This document shows, one piece after another, positions 32,066-39,311 of a stretch of 64,000 nt of DNA. The stretch is taken from the IMG/VR virus record IMGVR_UViG_3300033068_002024, positions 580-64,579 of that record, one strand, 5' to 3'. Position 1 is the first letter of the stretch; each line of letters starts with the position of its first letter. A model generated the notes under the pieces. That model ran no database searches. It worked only from the letters and a program-made list of their open reading frames with translations, and was not told the DNA's origin. The position numbers were made by a program, and so were the translations under genes. This DNA is from a virus.

Positions 32066-32671
32066 ATGGCTACATTATACGCAGTTATCGATTTAACCAA
32101 CGTCAAGGAGTCCAAAATCCTTCACGTTTGCGATATGGAGCGTGCGATCCATTGGGGCCGCATCTATGCCGGGCAAGGCCGCAAGGTAATAGCTCCGGCA
32201 CTTGCTGGCCGGGCCTTCACGGCTCTGGAATCAACGCTCGCGCTTCAGTACCTCTACTGGAATACCTTCGCCAAAACGCCGCCCGAAGATTTTGGCGAAC
32301 TGGTTAAAGCGTGCAAAGAAGCCGCTTTGGCGCTGCCGGCCGACACTACTGATATACGCTGGCTGGAACGTGAGGGTGAACGCTATGCAGCGGCCCCCAC
32401 GCAATATGACGAGGCCGGGTTGCCCATAAGCAAGCCCCGCGCCCCAGCGGCCCCAAGGGCGCCCGGCGAGCCTGCTGAACGGCCGCGCAATGCCGGGGCC
32501 ACACAAAAGGTTTGGGACGTTGCGGATGCAATGAAGGTGAGCAATAATGGGCAAATCCCGGAGCGCAAGCTGGTAATCGAAGAATGCGTGCGCCAAGGGA
32601 TCAACGCGGCTACGGCCAGCACCCAATTCAGCAAATGGAAAAACCATCATGTACGTCCTGATCAACTGTGA
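32066..32671 (+). CDS. Paralog family member 3
   Basis: RP..AGAT.KVWDVAD...GINAATASTQFSKW. Confidence 0.75.
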   Translation: MATLYAVIDLTNVKESKILHVCDMERAIHWGRIYAGQGRKVIAPALAGRAFTALESTLALQYLYWNTFAKTPPEDFGELVKACKEAALALPADTTDIRWLEREGERYAAAPTQYDEAGLPISKPRAPAAPRAPGEPAERPRNAGATQKVWDVADAMKVSNNGQIPERKLVIEECVRQGINAATASTQFSKWKNHHVRPDQL

Positions 32672-33209
32672 CGCCATGCGGTTTGTAGCCCGAGGGGACT
32701 ATCGTGCCCTCGCGGCTCAAGCCGATGCCAAGATGCCCGAAGCGTCCTATCTTATAGGGCCTGCGGACCAGCCCAGCACTTATCGCGACTTCACCGAAGC
32801 CGAGCTGAAGCTGCTGTACGATAACACCATGGAAGGCGTGCCACCTATCCCGGGCGCGCCCAAGCCCACCAAGTGGGAGCTGCCAAAGCTATGCCTTGCG
32901 CTGGCCACCAATGCGCCGCTAACCGGTTTCAAGGTGCCGCTTGAATCTCAGCATGCGGCATACCAGCCCCCTGTGGATGAGCAAGACGCTCGCTGGACTC
33001 CTCCTGCGCCGAAGGCTACCTTGCGGCCCAAGGCGGGCACCGCTACTGCCAAAGTATGGGAGATTGCCGATGCTCAGCGCGCCGCCGATCCAACTGCTGA
33101 TTTTAACGGTAAGGAATTTCGCGTTGCAGTAGTAACGCTTTGCGAAAAGGAAGGGATAAATAGTTCTACCGCTCAGGTTCAGCTGAGCAAATGGCGAAAG
33201 GAACAATAA
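32649..33209 (+). CDS. Paralog family member 4
   Basis: RPKAGTATAKVWEIAD...GINSSTAQVQLSKW. Confidence 0.75.
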   Translation: MYVLINCDAMRFVARGDYRALAAQADAKMPEASYLIGPADQPSTYRDFTEAELKLLYDNTMEGVPPIPGAPKPTKWELPKLCLALATNAPLTGFKVPLESQHAAYQPPVDEQDARWTPPAPKATLRPKAGTATAKVWEIADAQRAADPTADFNGKEFRVAVVTLCEKEGINSSTAQVQLSKWRKEQ

Positions 33210-33315: not shown

Positions 33316-33711
33316 ATGCCCGAAGATCAAGCTCAAACCGCCGCACCCGTAGCCGAAAAACCCGCGAAAATCGAACAGAACGGCGTCGTTCGCCCGAAAG
33401 CCGGCACCGCTACTGCCCGTATCTGGGACATTGCCGATGCTCTTTCCGCCGCTGCCGGCCACCCGACCGCCCGCGCTCCGGTGCTGGAAAAAGCCAAAGA
33501 AGAAGGTCTGAACCAAGCTACCGCCGCAACTCAATTCGGCCGCTGGTGCAAGTTCTACGGCGTCAAGCCCGAGCCGAAACCGAAAGTCGAAAAGCCGAAG
33601 AAAGAAAAGGCTGAAGCCGCCCCGAGCCCGGCACCCGCCGAGGCTCCGGCACCCGCCGAGGCTCCGGCAGCCGAAGCCCCGAGCCCGGCACCCGTCGAAG
33701 CTCAGGCATAA
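33316..33711 (+). CDS. Paralog family member 5
   Basis: RPKAGTATARIWDIAD...GLNQATAATQFGRW; Pro/Ala/Glu tail. Confidence 0.8.
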   Translation: MPEDQAQTAAPVAEKPAKIEQNGVVRPKAGTATARIWDIADALSAAAGHPTARAPVLEKAKEEGLNQATAATQFGRWCKFYGVKPEPKPKVEKPKKEKAEAAPSPAPAEAPAPAEAPAAEAPSPAPVEAQA

Positions 33712-33845: not shown

Positions 33846-34547
33846 ATGAATAATATCCAGCCAGCCGAAAAACAGGAACATTGCTCCAACGGGACGCTGG
33901 ACGTCTTCAAGATTTTTCCAACCATTCAGGGAGAAGGTCCGTTCGCCGGCGAAAGAGCTATTTTCGTGCGGCTGGCCGGTTGTAACCTTGCCTGCCCGCT
34001 TTGCGATACCGATTATACTTCCCATCGTAATTTGATAAGCCCAAAGGATCTTATACAGATCCTGAAAATGCATAGCTCAATGCGACGCGAAGAATTGATA
34101 GTGATTACTGGCGGAGAGCCATTCCGGCAAAACATTGCCACCGCTATCGAAATGCTTCTCGATGCAGGCTTCCGCGTGCAAATCGAAACTAATGGCACAC
34201 TGTTCCAAGAGCTGCCATATGACAATCCGAACCTGACGATAGTGTGCAGCCCGAAAACGGGATCAGTGCATCGCAAGCTTCAACCTCACATTGCCGCCTA
34301 CAAATACGTTGGGAAGAGCGACAATATATCCACAGTGGATGGCCTGCCCATGACCGCCCTTGACCATACCGCGGTGCCAAAGCTGGCTCGGCCGCACGCA
34401 GGCTTCGAAGGGACTGTTTACTTACAGCCAGCAGACGAGCAGGACGCCATCAAAAACGAGCAAAATACCAAGGCTATTGTCGATAGCGTTATGCGCTACG
34501 GGCACCGGCTTTGCCTTCAAATGCACAAGCAGATCGGAGTTGAATAA
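33846..34547 (+). CDS. queE: 7-carboxy-7-deazaguanine synthase (radical SAM)
   Basis: IFPTIQGEG, FVRLAGCNLACPLCDT, ITGGEP, IETNGT, CSPK, LQMHK. Confidence 0.95.
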   Translation: MNNIQPAEKQEHCSNGTLDVFKIFPTIQGEGPFAGERAIFVRLAGCNLACPLCDTDYTSHRNLISPKDLIQILKMHSSMRREELIVITGGEPFRQNIATAIEMLLDAGFRVQIETNGTLFQELPYDNPNLTIVCSPKTGSVHRKLQPHIAAYKYVGKSDNISTVDGLPMTALDHTAVPKLARPHAGFEGTVYLQPADEQDAIKNEQNTKAIVDSVMRYGHRLCLQMHKQIGVE

Positions 34548-35356
34548 TGAAACGAGCTAAAGCACTGGTGGTTCTTTCCGGCGGACAGGATAGCGTAACG
34601 TGCCTGTTTCTGGCCTTGCGCACCTTTGGCGAGGTGTATGCGATTACTTTCGATTATGGCCAACGCCATAAAATCGAAATCGAAGCAGCGATCAAAGTTG
34701 CCCAGATGGCGGGCCTTGGCGACCGGCACAAGATCGTCAATATCCCCGACATTCTCGTCAGCACTTCGCCGCTCACTTCCGCCGCTCCCCTCGAGCAATA
34801 CGAAAATGCCCAGCAAATGGAAGAAGTCATCGGCGATCGTGTGGAGCTCACCTTTGTTCCCATGCGAAACATGCTGTTCCTGACCATTGCCATGAATCAT
34901 GCCGTGGCGCTGGGCTGCGATCATGTCGTTACCGGCATCTGCCAAGAAGACAACGCCAACTATCCGGACTGCCGCGCAGAGTTTAAAAAGGCATTCCAGA
35001 ACACGGCAAACCTTGCGCTTGGCACCGAAGGGCAAGGCAACAACCCGGGACGCTTCGAAATACACGCGCCGCTTATGTACTGCGACAAGGCTCGCACCGT
35101 CAAGCTGGCTGCCGAAATTCCGGAATGCTGGCATGCGCTTGCCTACAGCCATACCAGCTACGATGGCACATTCCCGCCGACAGACATGAACCATGCCAAT
35201 GTGTTGCGCGCTCAAGGCTTCGAAGACGCCGGCCTGCCCGACCCGCTGGTAGTGCGCGCATGGTACGAAGGCAAAATGCCGCTGCCGGTAACCGCCAACT
35301 ACCAAAACCAAGGCGAGCTCGACAAAATCCTTGAAATGCTTTCCGGGGGTGCGTGA
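34547..35356 (+). CDS. queC: 7-cyano-7-deazaguanine synthase-like protein lacking the Zn-binding cysteines
   Basis: VLSGGQDS, FDYGQRH, TFVPMRN, YPDCR. Confidence 0.9.
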   Translation: MKRAKALVVLSGGQDSVTCLFLALRTFGEVYAITFDYGQRHKIEIEAAIKVAQMAGLGDRHKIVNIPDILVSTSPLTSAAPLEQYENAQQMEEVIGDRVELTFVPMRNMLFLTIAMNHAVALGCDHVVTGICQEDNANYPDCRAEFKKAFQNTANLALGTEGQGNNPGRFEIHAPLMYCDKARTVKLAAEIPECWHALAYSHTSYDGTFPPTDMNHANVLRAQGFEDAGLPDPLVVRAWYEGKMPLPVTANYQNQGELDKILEMLSGGA

Positions 35357-35775
35357 TGCCAATAACCGCTGAGCGCTATCACGATATCTCCTGTGGTCAT
35401 CGGGTGCATGGGCATGAGTCCAAATGCGCCAATTTGCACGGCCACAACTACCGCATTCATTTCGAGGTTGATTCCCCGGAGCTGGATGCGGTAGGCCGGG
35501 TGCTGGACTTCTCGGTTATCAAATCGCACCTGTGTATGTGGTTGGAAGACAACTGGGATCATAAGTTTTTGGTCTGGGCTGAAGATCCCATGCACAGCTA
35601 TCTCAAAGATATTGATAATGAGGTAGTGGTAGTACCTTTCAACCCGACCGCCGAAAACATGGCAAAGTATCTGGTTGAAGTGGTGGCGCCTTACCAGCTT
35701 ACCGGCACCGGCGCCCGCCTGATTCGCTGCACTATCGAAGAAACCCGGAAGTGCTCCGCCTCCTATAAAGTTTAA
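35353..35775 (+). CDS. queD: 6-carboxy-5,6,7,8-tetrahydropterin synthase
   Basis: CGHRV, C.NLHGHNY, DHKFL, NPTAENMA, EET. Confidence 0.93.
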   Translation: MMPITAERYHDISCGHRVHGHESKCANLHGHNYRIHFEVDSPELDAVGRVLDFSVIKSHLCMWLEDNWDHKFLVWAEDPMHSYLKDIDNEVVVVPFNPTAENMAKYLVEVVAPYQLTGTGARLIRCTIEETRKCSASYKV

Positions 35776-35784
35776 GGATCAGAC

Positions 35785-36819
35785 ATGTTGAAGTTGACTG
35801 TTCTTCAGGTTATGGGTTTGGCTACCACTTTGGCCAAGGAAATGAACGACATATATCGCGGGCGCTATGTTGGCCCGCCGAAGGCATTTGCAATTCCCCG
35901 TGGCGGGGTGCCGGCCTTATACGCGCTCATTGCAGCGGGCGCAAACCTGATAGCGGTTGACAGTCCGCACGACGCAGATATTTTCGTCGATGACATTATT
36001 GATTCTGGCTCCACCATGGAACACTGGAGCGACGAATACCCCGGCAAGGCGTTCTATGCGCTCGTCGATAAAACTGATCCTCAAAGCCCGTTCCGGGAAA
36101 AATGGGTGGTGTTTCCTTGGGAAAATGGCAACGAAGAACGCAGCGAAGACGACACGATCGTTGGCACTATTACCAACCGTATCAAAGCAGCCGGCGAACC
36201 CTTTTTTGCCAACGATAACATCGCACGCTTCATTCATGGCGAGCTGGAATTAAGCCTGCTGGAAAACGAACTGGAAAGTCGCATTGGTCGGGTGTTGGAA
36301 GGCTTGGTAATCGATACCGCCAATGACCACAATACGCAGGATTCCGCTCGCCGCATCGCCAAGATGTATTTACATGAAGTGTTTAGTGGTCGGTATGTGG
36401 TGCCGCCAGAAGTAACTTCGTTCCCGAATGCAAAAGCGCTGGACGAGATGTATACCGTTGGTCCAATATCCGTTCGCTCGCATTGCGCCCATCATTTCTT
36501 GCCAGTGACTGGTCAGTGCTGGGTCGGCGTTGTGCCCGGCGAACGCGTGATTGGCCTGTCCAAGTTCAATCGGCTGGTCGATTGGGTGTGCAGCCGCCCG
36601 CAGATACAAGAAGAAATGACCATGCAAGTGGCCGATCTGCTGGATGGCATCGTGCGTCCGGAGGGCCTTGCAGTGTTTATCAAAGCGCATCATGGCTGCA
36701 TGACCTGCCGAGGCGTGCGCGAATCCACCGAGGCAGAAATGAATACCTCGGTAATGCGCGGCGTATTCCGGGACAAGCCTGAAGCGAGGGCTGAATTCTT
36801 CAACCTGATCAAAAAGTAA
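35785..36819 (+). CDS. folE: Purine phosphoribosyltransferase-like domain fused to GTP cyclohydrolase I
   Basis: N-terminus: IPRGG, VDDIIDSGST, WVVFPWE. C-terminus: CAHHFLP, GLSKFNR, RPQIQE, HGCMTCRGV. Confidence 0.9.
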   Translation: MLKLTVLQVMGLATTLAKEMNDIYRGRYVGPPKAFAIPRGGVPALYALIAAGANLIAVDSPHDADIFVDDIIDSGSTMEHWSDEYPGKAFYALVDKTDPQSPFREKWVVFPWENGNEERSEDDTIVGTITNRIKAAGEPFFANDNIARFIHGELELSLLENELESRIGRVLEGLVIDTANDHNTQDSARRIAKMYLHEVFSGRYVVPPEVTSFPNAKALDEMYTVGPISVRSHCAHHFLPVTGQCWVGVVPGERVIGLSKFNRLVDWVCSRPQIQEEMTMQVADLLDGIVRPEGLAVFIKAHHGCMTCRGVRESTEAEMNTSVMRGVFRDKPEARAEFFNLIKK

Positions 36820-36825
36820 AGCGCC

Positions 36826-37752
36826 ATGAAGATCTTTATGGCGGGCTGCTTTACCAACGGCATAGCTGACGTTAACGGCAACTTGTTTACCAAGCTGACG
36901 GATATTGAGCGGAAGATATGCCAAGCAGTTCCGCATCATTTGGAAAGCTACCACTACATTCATAACCCGCGCAAAGTTGAAATGATTCGCGCTAACGGCA
37001 AACAGGTGTTCCTTGACTCGGGAGCGTTCTCCGCCTTCACCAAAGGAGTTGAAATTGACCTCCCGGGATATTGTAAATACATTCAAGACAATGAAGACAT
37101 TATCCTCCGCGATGGGGGAGATCTTGTTGCGTCCGTGCTGGACGGTATTGGAGACCCGCTCAAGACATGGCGAAATCAGTTGGCTATGGAAAAGCTCGGA
37201 GTTCGCCCTCTCCCCTGCTTTCACTATGGGGAAGACGAACGCTACCTTGAATGGTATATTGAGCGATACGAATACATCACCATTGGCGGAATGGTGCCGA
37301 TCGCTAAGCCCCAGCTATACTACTGGCTTGATACAATATGGGAAAAATATCTCACTGACGGCTCAGGCAGACCTCGGTTAAAGGTGCATGGCTTCGGCCT
37401 CACTACCGAAGGGCTCATGGCTCGCTATCCTTGGTGGAGCGTCGATAGCTCGTCATGGGTTCAGAGCGCGTCCAACGGCAGTATTCTAATGCCTAGCCGT
37501 GGCTTCAAGACGGTTAGCGTTTCGGATAATTCTCCAGCGCGCCGCCAATTCAATCAGCATATCAATACCATTTCCGAAACCGAGCGCACAGTTCTGGTTC
37601 AACAATTGGAAAAGGAAGGCTTCTCATTGGACCGCTTACAGCGGGAATACGTTTCGCGCTGGGTGTATAATTTGCACGCTTACCAAGAAATGGGCAAGAT
37701 ATACAACAATCCCGATCCCCGTTACGAAGTTGACCAACAGGCGCTCTTCTAA
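36826..37752 (+). CDS. dpdA: TGT-fold DNA 7-deazaguanine transglycosylase (DpdA-like)
   Basis: FLDSGAFS, LDGIGD, PCFHYGE, IGGMVP, VHGFG, SVDSSSW; in an operon with queE/C/D and folE. Confidence 0.8.
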   Translation: MKIFMAGCFTNGIADVNGNLFTKLTDIERKICQAVPHHLESYHYIHNPRKVEMIRANGKQVFLDSGAFSAFTKGVEIDLPGYCKYIQDNEDIILRDGGDLVASVLDGIGDPLKTWRNQLAMEKLGVRPLPCFHYGEDERYLEWYIERYEYITIGGMVPIAKPQLYYWLDTIWEKYLTDGSGRPRLKVHGFGLTTEGLMARYPWWSVDSSSWVQSASNGSILMPSRGFKTVSVSDNSPARRQFNQHINTISETERTVLVQQLEKEGFSLDRLQREYVSRWVYNLHAYQEMGKIYNNPDPRYEVDQQALF

Positions 37753-38024: not shown

Positions 38025-38964
38025 GACCCTCAAATTCGTTCAAGGCGCAGTGGCCAAGAAAGACTTTGTGCCGGTGCTAATGCACTTCCATATCAAGAAC
38101 GGAATCATCTGTGGTTACAATGGGCGCCTCGCGCTCAGCAGCCCAATTGACCTTGATTTGGATTGCTGCCCCTTGGCCAAGCCGTTTGTAAAAGCGATCC
38201 AAACGTGCAAAGATACTATTGAATTGCACATGACTGCTGCCGGGCGCCTATCTGTTAAATCTGGAAAGTTTCGCGCCTACGTGGATTGCGTGCAAGAGGT
38301 CTTTCCGGACATCAAGCCGGAAGGCGAAATAGTCGAACTTCAATCCGGCTTTTTGGATACCTTCAAATTGCTAGCGCCCTTCATCGCCGAAGACGATTCT
38401 AAGCAGTGGGCTCGCGGGATTCTTCTGCGCGGTCAATCGGCATACGCGACCAACAATATTATCCTGATCGAAAAATGGATGGGCTCTCCCTTTCCAGTGG
38501 AGGTCAATGTGCCGGCCAATGCAGTAGCCGAATTGCTGCGCATTGGCGAAGATCCGATTAGCCTCCAAATGAATGAAAACAGCCTTACTTTTCATTATTC
38601 GAGCGGGCGCTGGCTTCGCAGCCAACTGCTGTCAACCCAATGGCCCGATGTTGGGGCCATCCTTAGCCGGGAAAGCGCGCAGGAGCCAGTGCCGGAGGGC
38701 CTATGGGCTGGTTTGCAGGAAATTAAGCCCTTCGTTGACGACCTTGGCCGCGTATGGATTCGCCCCGGCAAAATCAGCACGCATCTTGATGAAGGCATTG
38801 GCGCCAGTACGGAAGTTCCAATGACCACAGTGGGTTGCTTCAATCTTGAACAGCTAGCCCTGCTTGAATCAGTTGCTACCTCAATAGATATCTCGGCGCA
38901 TCCGAGGCCCGGCTTGTTCTATGGCGACAAGTTGCGCGGGGCTATCGTTGGGATTCGAGTGTGA
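38017..38964 (+). CDS. DNA polymerase sliding clamp (beta-subunit-like)
   Basis: LKFVQGAVAKKDFVPVL.H, FP.I, GILL, ATN, QWPDV; upstream of the polymerase. Confidence 0.8.
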   Translation: MLETLKFVQGAVAKKDFVPVLMHFHIKNGIICGYNGRLALSSPIDLDLDCCPLAKPFVKAIQTCKDTIELHMTAAGRLSVKSGKFRAYVDCVQEVFPDIKPEGEIVELQSGFLDTFKLLAPFIAEDDSKQWARGILLRGQSAYATNNIILIEKWMGSPFPVEVNVPANAVAELLRIGEDPISLQMNENSLTFHYSSGRWLRSQLLSTQWPDVGAILSRESAQEPVPEGLWAGLQEIKPFVDDLGRVWIRPGKISTHLDEGIGASTEVPMTTVGCFNLEQLALLESVATSIDISAHPRPGLFYGDKLRGAIVGIRV

Positions 38965-39311
38965 AAGAGCGCATCTTAGTTTGCGGCGGTCGAGAATATC
39001 ATGACCGCCAATACTTTTTTGAGCGCATGAATTACGCGAAGCAATGGTTCGCAAAAGAATTTTGTATTATTCACGGCCATGCGCGCGGAGCGGATATGCT
39101 TGCTCACGTTTGGTGTTTTGAAACCGGCTGCGCCACCATGTCCATGCCGGCCAATTGGCATTATTACGACAAACGAGCCGGACCCATCCGCAACCGTTGG
39201 ATGCTCAAGTGGGGCATGCCAGATTTGGTCATTGCTTTCCCGGGTAACTCAGGAACAGCTGATATGGTATCTATAGCTACAAATGCCAACATAGATGTTT
39301 GGAAGCCCTAA
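38961..39311 (+). CDS. SLOG-superfamily protein (DUF2493/YspA-like)
   Basis: LVCGGR, IHGHARGAD, AGPIRN, AFPG.SGTADM. Confidence 0.85.
   Translation: MKERILVCGGREYHDRQYFFERMNYAKQWFAKEFCIIHGHARGADMLAHVWCFETGCATMSMPANWHYYDKRAGPIRNRWMLKWGMPDLVIAFPGNSGTADMVSIATNANIDVWKP

Follow-up and report, generated by a model that had tools for sequence, protein, structure and literature searches.

The closest described relatives of the viral gene analysed here, an open reading frame (ORF) in which a phosphoribosyltransferase (PRTase) domain, hereafter the PRT domain, is joined to GTP cyclohydrolase I (FolE), are found in several different systems. The gene, referred to as the PRT-FolE ORF (Table 1), lies in a 64,000-nucleotide stretch of DNA, the window, which covers nearly the entire 64,579-bp IMG/VR record IMGVR_UViG_3300033068_002024. 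This record is rated as complete by CheckV, the G+C content of the genome is 51.2%, and the source phage is known solely from this metagenomic record.

By profile and by fold, the best match of the PRT domain is the xanthine-guanine phosphoribosyltransferase (XGPRT, Gpt) of Escherichia coli and Yersinia pestis (Protein Data Bank (PDB) entries 1NUL, 1A95-1A98, 4JLS, 4JIT, 5XTK and 6KP5). The N-terminal helix, the SRGG/PRGG loop, the DD..D.G.T loop, a lysine, a stacking tryptophan and the PW(D/E) ending are common to both, whereas the sequence identity is only about 20%, the window's domain is without loop II and it is fused to FolE, Gpt being a free protein of 152 residues. Gpt assembles into a tetramer. 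The tightest superposition is obtained with the hypoxanthine-guanine-xanthine phosphoribosyltransferase (HGXPRT) of S. solfataricus (GpT-2; PDB entries 4Z1O and 5BQP), which shares the ending 'KW[IV][IV]FPW[DE]' with the window's domain; unlike the latter, it is a free enzyme of 179 residues in which the loop is kept, and the single-sequence E value is 0.85. The remainder of the protein, from about residue 125 to 344, aligns throughout, including the N-terminal helix, with the long-type GTP cyclohydrolase I (PDB entries 4DU6 and 1FBX), and it is 50-58% identical to cyanobacterial and betaproteobacterial FolE.

Gene clusters in which a PRTase accompanies homologues of FolE, QueD and QueE are also known, namely those of tubercidin and toyocamycin, with the PRTases TubE and ToyH (PMC6112128). 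According to this description, with which alone the comparison is made, these proteins differ from the window's gene in belonging to actinomycete secondary metabolism without a transglycosylase, TubE being a free protein of 194 residues. Unlike the nucleotide-level pathway of TubE and ToyH, the window has dpdA, the gene of a DNA guanine transglycosylase, directly downstream of the PRT-FolE ORF, and it has no guanylate kinase gene. An accessory domain on a core enzyme of the phage modification clusters is likewise reported for the Gat-QueC of phage 9g; the Gat domain alters the final product, whereas the PRT domain sits at the entry of the pathway (PMC6884629, PMC10516641).

No description of a PRTase, fused or free, in phage 7-deazaguanine clusters was found in the literature searched, outside which the supplementary per-phage gene tables lie, and the word 'phosphoribosyl' does not occur in the main text of PMC10516641. 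Some stand-alone copies are already named 'phosphoribosyl transferase' by automatic annotation, and the 34 isolate phage records that carry the fusion are, where annotated, labelled as GTP cyclohydrolase only. The gene is already known; its link to the 7-deazaguanine pathway is new. A Gpt-derived PRTase is a sixth recurrent component of these clusters, fused to FolE or encoded beside it in most loci.

The PRT domain and the FolE part of the fused protein

The likeness of the PRT domain to Gpt is beyond chance, but it is found at the profile or fold level only. With the domain as query, a search of 1.84 billion representatives yields 451 clusters at 50% identity with E ≤ 1e-3, of which 115 have E ≤ 1e-10. 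Alignment A2 combines 74 short family members with the window's domain (n = 75), the members being 28-45% identical to the latter. The profile made from this alignment matches XGPRT over its whole length, with E values of 1.5e-10 to 2.7e-9 for the enzymes of Y. pestis and E. coli and one gap of 21 residues. The AlphaFold2 model calculated from A2, which is a predicted fold, has a predicted local distance difference test score (pLDDT) of 92.6 and a predicted template modelling score (pTM) of 0.83. When this model is used as a Foldseek query, E. coli XGPRT comes first (4jls, E 2.3e-5) and there are 96 matches at E ≤ 0.001; among the matches listed, all are purine PRTases. The superpositions by VIA-align of the same predicted model give Z scores of 12.3-11.5 for the XGPRT entries and of 11.7 for S. 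solfataricus HGXPRT (root mean square deviation 2.4 Å over 107 residues), the other 6-oxopurine PRTases and PyrR being next with Z scores of 9-10. OPRT, UPRT, APRT, PurF and ComF were considered as alternative identities of the domain and rejected: none tops any of the lists, and APRT and PyrR reach only Z 9.2-9.4. The model and the profile indicate that residues 1-115 are a reduced 6-oxopurine phosphoribosyltransferase derived from the XGPRT/Gpt lineage.

Searches with the single sequence give much lower scores. The PDB search with the PRT domain remains at noise level (E ≥ 0.85), Pfam PF00156 scores 10.8 bits in the six-frame search of the window, and precomputed PF00156 matches exist for just 3 of the best 120 full-length homologues. 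The match to phrog_8995, named 'phosphoribosyl transferase', has E 2.3e-5 and covers residues 64-116 only.

The active-site positions were mapped with alignment A4, which includes the Gpt of E. coli K-12 taken from its genome record. An earlier note, made from the sequence of the window, had described a compact Gpt-like PRTase domain fused in frame to FolE, and had named the motifs PRGG, VDDIIDSGST and WVVFPWE. The description of the domain is borne out by the profile match (E 1.5e-10), the superposition (Z 12.3) and the alignment with Gpt, and the motifs are located exactly as stated (residues 38-41, 68-77 and 107-113). VDDIIDSGST fits the pattern of a loop that binds 5-phosphoribosyl 1-pyrophosphate (PRPP), being an acidic pair followed by D-[ST]-G-x-T, and its conservation among the 75 members is high (D69 in 75, D70 in 74, D73 in 69, G75 in 74 and T77 in 73). 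The same holds for the hood motif, where W107 is found in 72 members, P111 and W112 in all 75, and E113 in 72. The catalytic and binding roles of the mapped Gpt residues, including those of the purine-site residues Lys115, Trp134 and Asp92, are assignments that we take as given, Lys115 presumably contacting the exocyclic O6 of the purine; the counterparts of these three residues, K96, W107 and D73, are kept in 63, 72 and 69 of the 75 members. All mapped purine, PRPP and catalytic positions of XGPRT are conserved in the window's domain, and each of them is conserved in 63-75 of the 75 members.

As read from the alignment, the domain retains every mapped residue for binding and chemistry, yet it appears to be without the lid. 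The small size noted earlier is therefore correct, but its reason, the deletion of loop II, had been missed. A type I PRTase that is naturally without loop II, and whose active site is, judging from the sequence, otherwise intact, could serve as a test case for the purpose of this loop.

The FolE part scores 156.9 bits with PF01227 (cut-off 27; residues 170-342), and its top PDB match is 4du6 (E 7.7e-36, residues 153-342). The cut-offs of the NCBIfam equivalog models of FolE are not reached (NF006824, 160.4 vs 202 bits; TIGR00063, 154.6 vs 181.6 bits). Residues C234, H236, H237, H303 and C305, which we take to be those of zinc binding and catalysis, are invariant in the 32 sequences of alignment A1, and the CAHH of the window is aligned with the CEHH of the solved FolE enzymes. 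Cellular FolE relatives start to align at residue 108-129, so that the FolE part, with about 220 residues, is a long-type enzyme of full length, and residues 1 to about 115 make up the extra domain. In the full-length model (pTM 0.65) the relative placement of the PRT and FolE domains is without confidence, and no confident interdomain contact is seen. In some members the FolE domain itself is interrupted: P0133, P0184 (about 583 residues) and L022 are PRT-FolE fusions with an intein and an HNH endonuclease inside the FolE domain (Intein_splicing 56.7 bits, HNH_3 up to 37.8 bits), which split FolE at profile position 70.

Distribution of the fusion and of stand-alone PRTases

The architecture and context counts are based on 80 IMG/VR loci that were collected with the domain profile. 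In 77 of these, the PRT domain and FolE are encoded in one frame; the three others are L029, where the contig end cuts the gene, L030, where the domain is found alone, and L068, where the two parts are adjacent genes. In tblastn searches with the whole protein, 405 FolE-bearing phage records are found, of which 34 are matched over at least 80% of the protein, and a search with the PRT domain alone gives 39 phage records, being the same 34 and five Cellulophaga phage records. The hosts of the 34 fusion phages are Pseudomonas, Vibrio, Stenotrophomonas, Variovorax, Xanthomonas and Sphingomonas. For 118 of the best 120 database clusters, the coverage of the query is 90% or more. A contig made by a different assembler, possibly from the same sample as the window, is identical over positions 35400-37200, with a depth of 754; no RNA data set is listed as holding the stretch. 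The domain-architecture search that the earlier note had proposed as a check thus finds the same fusion in 77/80 loci and in 34 isolate phage records; together with the identical contig from another assembler, these counts rule out an assembly artefact or chimera. At the DNA level, the phage search gives matches of just 98 nucleotides, in four records.

The PRT domain is not found in the closest cellular enzymes: none of the best 80 cellular FolE relatives covers residues 1-107, a set that samples the closest FolEs and not cells at large. The structural look-alikes of the domain in the Atlas are mostly viral; one row is mostly cyanobacterial and another mostly Pseudomonadota. A further row (row 7 of the ESM Atlas) is a viral cluster of 277-residue proteins that all carry ParB_N; over their N-terminal 122 residues they resemble the model of the PRT domain, with a template-modelling score of 0.73. 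Bacterial dpd systems pair DpdA with the ParB-like DpdB.

With iterated profiles, QueE is detected in 77, QueD in 74, DpdA in 66 and QueC in 59 of the 80 loci. The DpdA count obtained by single-sequence search (60/80) is too low, the phrog_887 protein of L051 having been missed, and such phmmer searches also miss short-type FolE. DpdA is missing from 14 loci. In 12 of these a contig end cuts the locus short, leaving a flank of less than 4 kb on at least one side; the two exceptions, L030 and L068, have about 5.8 kb at either side. QueC is variable: 11 loci have frames of 414-531 residues, the size of Gat-QueC, 21 are without QueC and some have the plain form. A set of 150 representatives is unfit for architecture fractions, many being contig-end fragments; FolE is found there in 53/150 by motif rules and in 38/150 by phmmer. 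From the 80 loci it is clear that the domain is tightly coupled genetically to folE and to DpdA clusters.

Two proteins have other arrangements. L030 (5794-6417) is the one fully flanked locus in which the PRT domain stands alone, in a frame of 208 residues; FolE, Que and DpdA genes are absent from the roughly 5.8 kb at each side of it. P0167 (264 residues) consists of a loop-less PRT domain followed by a stretch like the C-terminal half of DpdA (residues 121-189 vs residues 148-211 of the window's DpdA, E 2e-7); this is an isolated case, possibly a deletion chimera.

Separate PRTase genes directly upstream of folE are seen in L068, L165 and L167-L170. The stand-alone phage PRTases of phrog_8995 are homologous to the window's domain, as judged from the match given above, from that of the L169 protein to the same family (E 2.6e-24) and from 41% identity to the PRTase of Cellulophaga phage phiST over the C-terminal half. 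The stand-alone phage PRTases pass the PF00156 cut-off, with 30-52 bits. The enzymes of phiST, L169 and Synechococcus phage BUCT-ZZ01 keep loop II with a WQTRDG motif, and the forms of Flavobacterium phage immuto_2-6A, L068, Vibrio phage VpKK5 and the window are without this loop. The WQTRDG motif is common to the loop-keeping PRTases of L167-L170 and L172, and is absent from E. coli Gpt. No relatives of the stand-alone protein P0183 were found in viral contigs.

Four isolate genomes were compared, and QueE is present in all of them; in three, a stand-alone PRTase lies in the FolE/Que cluster, where it adjoins folE (immuto_2-6A and Brevundimonas phage vB_BpoS-MaInes) or is two genes away from it (BUCT-ZZ01). 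The order in immuto_2-6A is queD, queE, two small ORFs, PRTase gp211, FolE gp210, three genes, DpdA gp206, a small ORF and DpdN gp204, and that in BUCT-ZZ01 is queE, 'XGPRT', one ORF, queD and folE. In MaInes (L175, 651-5465) ribonucleotide reductase, deoxynucleoside monophosphate (dNMP) kinase, FolE and 'XPRT' follow each other and QueE is 8.5 kb away; the small ORFs near the FolE-XPRT pair have no Pfam family, and the setting is one of nucleotide metabolism and not a compact Que cluster. In phiST the PRTase (CGPG_00045) is near ribonucleotide reductase and away from folE. The phrog_887 (DpdA) search of the four genomes gave no matches, nor did it in any control, and hence it is uninformative. 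The L169 contig is T4-like, with late sigma factor, UvsY and helicase genes and the order queE-PRT-folE, and no DpdA is detectable on it with the DpdA profile. As reported by Cui et al. (PMC10516641), phiST and immuto_2-6A replace all G. The PRTase is found in phages with complete replacement of G as well as in siphophages that modify their DNA partly.

Possible roles of the PRT domain

We infer the catalysis, the substrate and the physiological role of the PRT domain. The reading that we tentatively favour is that the domain turns guanine and PRPP into GMP, by which the guanine that is released by DpdA would be recycled. DpdA would exchange 7-cyano-7-deazaguanine (preQ0) for guanine in the phage DNA, releasing one free guanine per event, and the PRT domain would join this guanine and PRPP to give GMP. 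The guanylate kinase and the nucleoside-diphosphate kinase of the host would then convert GMP into GTP, which the fused FolE would commit to the QueD-QueE-QueC route that leads to preQ0. The modification would have no net purine cost, free guanine, which is a competing substrate of DpdA, would be cleared by the PRTase, and the fusion would provide a 1:1 ratio of the consumer of GTP and the recapturer of guanine. From the composition of the window, the release of guanine is estimated as about 0.9-1.8 mM in 1 fL for 100 genomes with 16.5-32% G replacement, the burst size and cell volume being assumed values and the percentages being the published range for iggy, 9g and CAjan. If guanine recycling is true, it would explain how a phage can make DNA bases from millimolar amounts of GTP while replication does not starve and the cell is not swamped with guanine. 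With a FolE turnover of no more than a few cycles per minute, a lid-less PRTase that is slowed several hundred-fold could still match the pace of FolE. The same clusters also contain full-size relatives with loop II and with scores above the PF00156 cut-off, which argues that the ancestral role was catalytic. Guanine salvage had also been put forward in the earlier note; it fits the conserved positions, the presence of DpdA in 66/80 loci and the PRTases of the phages that replace all G, and is retained here as a candidate role. The question is directly testable, since cultured carriers exist (NP1, PaMx25, JG012, Quinobequin-P09, VpKK5 and immuto_2-6A).

Several observations weigh against guanine salvage. 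The PRT domain alone scores 14.5 bits with PF00156 (E 0.022, residues 1-130), where the gathering cut-off is 26.3 bits, and 18 bits with the NCBIfam XPRT model NF006613 (E 0.0016, residues 65-114 only), where the cut-off is 138 bits. The flexible loop II, which in E. coli Gpt comprises the 21 residues 52-72 between strands 2 and 3, has no counterpart in the window's domain, and for the HPRT of Trypanosoma cruzi the deletion of seven loop II residues is reported to lower the turnover number 380- and 840-fold for the formation of IMP and GMP, respectively (PMC9536471). Neither a guanylate kinase gene nor a PRPP synthetase gene was found in the phage, so that two host kinases are needed. The fusion cannot channel, because GMP is not a substrate of FolE, and if the removal of guanine were the aim, a fusion with DpdA would seem more obvious; only one such chimera, P0167, is seen. 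Furthermore, 41 Escherichia records are among the FolE matches and none of them is among the 39 matches of the PRT domain; the domain is apparently lacking in the Queuovirinae of E. coli, for example 9g and CAjan.

The deletion of the catalytic loop can also be read differently. The loop-less domain may be a non-catalytic sensor that binds PRPP, GMP/GTP, guanine or guanosine tetra- or pentaphosphate, (p)ppGpp, and tunes the activity or assembly of FolE, so that the GTP pool would be tapped by the phage only in times of purine abundance; PyrR and PurR are regulators of a similar kind that have the PRT fold. This possibility, which we consider rather unlikely, is in agreement with the specific partnership of the PRT domain, by fusion or adjacency, with FolE and not with DpdA, as well as with its structural neighbours, PyrR (Z 9.2) and the N. 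gonorrhoeae structure 5vog with bound ppGpp (Z 10.8), and (p)ppGpp is reported to occupy the active site of HPRT and XGPRT (PMC6783271). On the other hand, the counterpart of the general-base aspartate (D73, Gpt D92) is kept in 69/75 members, whereas binding alone needs no such residue, and loop-bearing enzymes that pass the Pfam cut-off are found in the same genomic position. An allosteric route is also not evident, because the full-length model, with its pTM of 0.65 and low linker confidence (pLDDT 64), has no confident contact between the domains. That loop II is lost and that the Pfam and NCBIfam cut-offs are not reached would likewise suit a decayed remnant, in which a former Gpt gene fused to folE now provides an appendage for folding, solubility or oligomerisation without ligand function. 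Such a decay is very improbable: the ligand and catalytic positions are near-invariant among 75 members whose identity to the window's domain is no higher than 28-45%, the family comprises 451 clusters at 50% identity (E ≤ 1e-3), and the domain also persists as a separate gene adjoining folE.

The choice of the base is a further point on which the readings differ. The earlier note had considered that preQ0 or an analogue is converted into a nucleotide, and TubE provides a precedent for this, being a proven PRTase specific for 7-carboxy-7-deazaguanine (CDG) that is encoded beside FolE, QueD and QueE homologues (PMC6112128); ToyH, in the same setting, is proposed to be a preQ0 PRTase (10.64898/2026.04.15.718813). 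A PRT domain of this type would use CDG, preQ0 or a derivative together with PRPP, and this reaction could be the first step of a pre-replicative route to modified dNTPs at the nucleotide level; alternatively, it could serve to drain or store the free base. The PRTase genes of phiST and immuto_2-6A, both of which replace 100% of G (PMC10516641), and the FolE-PRT pair of MaInes, which adjoins ribonucleotide reductase and dNMP kinase, are in agreement with this, and K96 and W107 would also suit 7-deazaguanine, in which O6 is retained. We nevertheless regard a 7-deazapurine substrate as improbable, and as less likely than guanine, because the transglycosylase is nearly always present and the aspartate at N7 is kept. 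DpdA, the user of the free base, is found in 66/80 loci, and 12 of the other 14 have a flank of less than 4 kb; in the account of Cui et al. every such virus has DpdA (PMC10516641). The aspartate that would face N7 of the purine is conserved, whereas a 7-deaza base is without N7 (PDB titles name an 'invariant aspartic acid in HPRTs'), the window is without kinase or reductase genes that could carry the ribotide to the dNTP, and XGPRT is ranked first both by profile and by fold. That the PRT domain and its stand-alone relatives of the phiST and immuto type all ribosylate CDG, preQ0 or a derivative, by analogy with TubE, and so open a nucleotide-level, pre-replicative route beside DpdA, appears quite improbable. 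If true, the published conclusion that every such modification is made after replication would have to be reconsidered.

The modification cluster of the window

The genes of the cluster and the features of the fused protein are collected in Table 1. The genes queE, queC, queD, the PRT-FolE ORF, dpdA, a sliding-clamp-like gene, a small SLOG-family gene and a family A DNA polymerase gene form a tight, co-directional block, and all five genes of a dPreQ0-type cluster (those encoding FolE, QueD and QueE as well as QueC and DpdA) are present and adjacent, as identified with Pfam and PHROG. The gene order is the one described for Queuovirinae (PMC10484667), and it is also shown by Vibrio phage VpKK5. 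No QueF is seen in the cluster of the window. By the rule of Hutinet et al., with which the product is predicted from the gene content of the cluster (PMC6884629), the modification is predicted to be dPreQ0, because QueC is without a Gat domain and no QueF is seen. The start of the PRT-FolE ORF is sound, because AAGGA precedes the ATG by 6 nucleotides and the homologues align from residue 1.

Table 1. Positions of the modification genes and of the features of the PRT-FolE ORF in the window.
Feature	Positions	Strand	Basis and remarks
queE	33846..34547	+	phrog_2076, E 6.1e-50; Pfam Radical_SAM, 38.6 bits
queC (preQ0 synthase), 269 residues, without Gat domain	34547..35356	+	PF06508, 175 bits; TIGR00364, 163.2 bits vs cut-off 150.3
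queD (6-carboxytetrahydropterin (CPH4) synthase)	35353..35775	+	PF01242, 87.4 bits; phrog_2389, E 3e-52
AAGGA, probable Shine-Dalgarno-like element, 6 nucleotides 5' of the ATG, overlapping the queD stop codon	35774..35778	+	read from the sequence
PRT-FolE ORF	35785..36819	+	344 residues, ATG start, single frame
XGPRT/Gpt-like type I PRTase domain without flexible loop II, residues 1-115	35785..36129	+	family profile, model and fold matches
P38-R39-G40-G41, pyrophosphate loop (loop I)	35896..35907	+	R39 = E. coli Gpt R37; R39 in 72/75, G40 in 74/75, G41 in 75/75 members
NLIAVDSPHDAD, residues 54-65, short turn in the place of loop II	35944..35979	+	21-residue gap in the profile-to-XGPRT alignment and in A4
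V68-DDIIDSGS-T77, PRPP/5'-phosphate loop	35986..36015	+	D69/D70 = Gpt D88/D89, D73 = D92, T77 = T96
K96	36070..36072	+	= Gpt K115; K in 63/75, R in 4/75 members
W107-VVFPW-E113, hood motif	36103..36123	+	W107 = Gpt W134, W112 = W139, E113 = D140
Acidic linker, residues 116-124, low model confidence	36130..36156	+	full-length model, block 111-120 with pLDDT 64
Complete long (E. coli-type) GTP cyclohydrolase I, residues 125-344 and stop	36157..36819	+	PF01227, PDB FolE
dpdA (DNA guanine transglycosylase)	36826..37752	+	phrog_887, E 8e-73; under the NCBIfam DpdA cut-off

Upstream of queE, two ORFs on the plus strand (32649-33209 and 33316-33711) have the motif RPKAGTATA[KR][VI]W[ED]IADA and a similar C-terminal stretch in common. 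They have no Pfam family and look like paralogous small proteins, the second of the pair ending in a Pro/Ala-rich tail.

At the other side of the cluster, the small gene at 38961-39311 (plus strand) encodes a 116-residue YspA/SLOG-family protein (PF10686, 47.8 bits; phrog_289, E 1.7e-24). It lies between the clamp-like gene and the DNA polymerase A gene, overlapping both, and among the 80 related loci only L020 has it by single-sequence search. Since SLOG/LOG folds bind nucleotides, the protein could be relevant near a purine-handling cluster.

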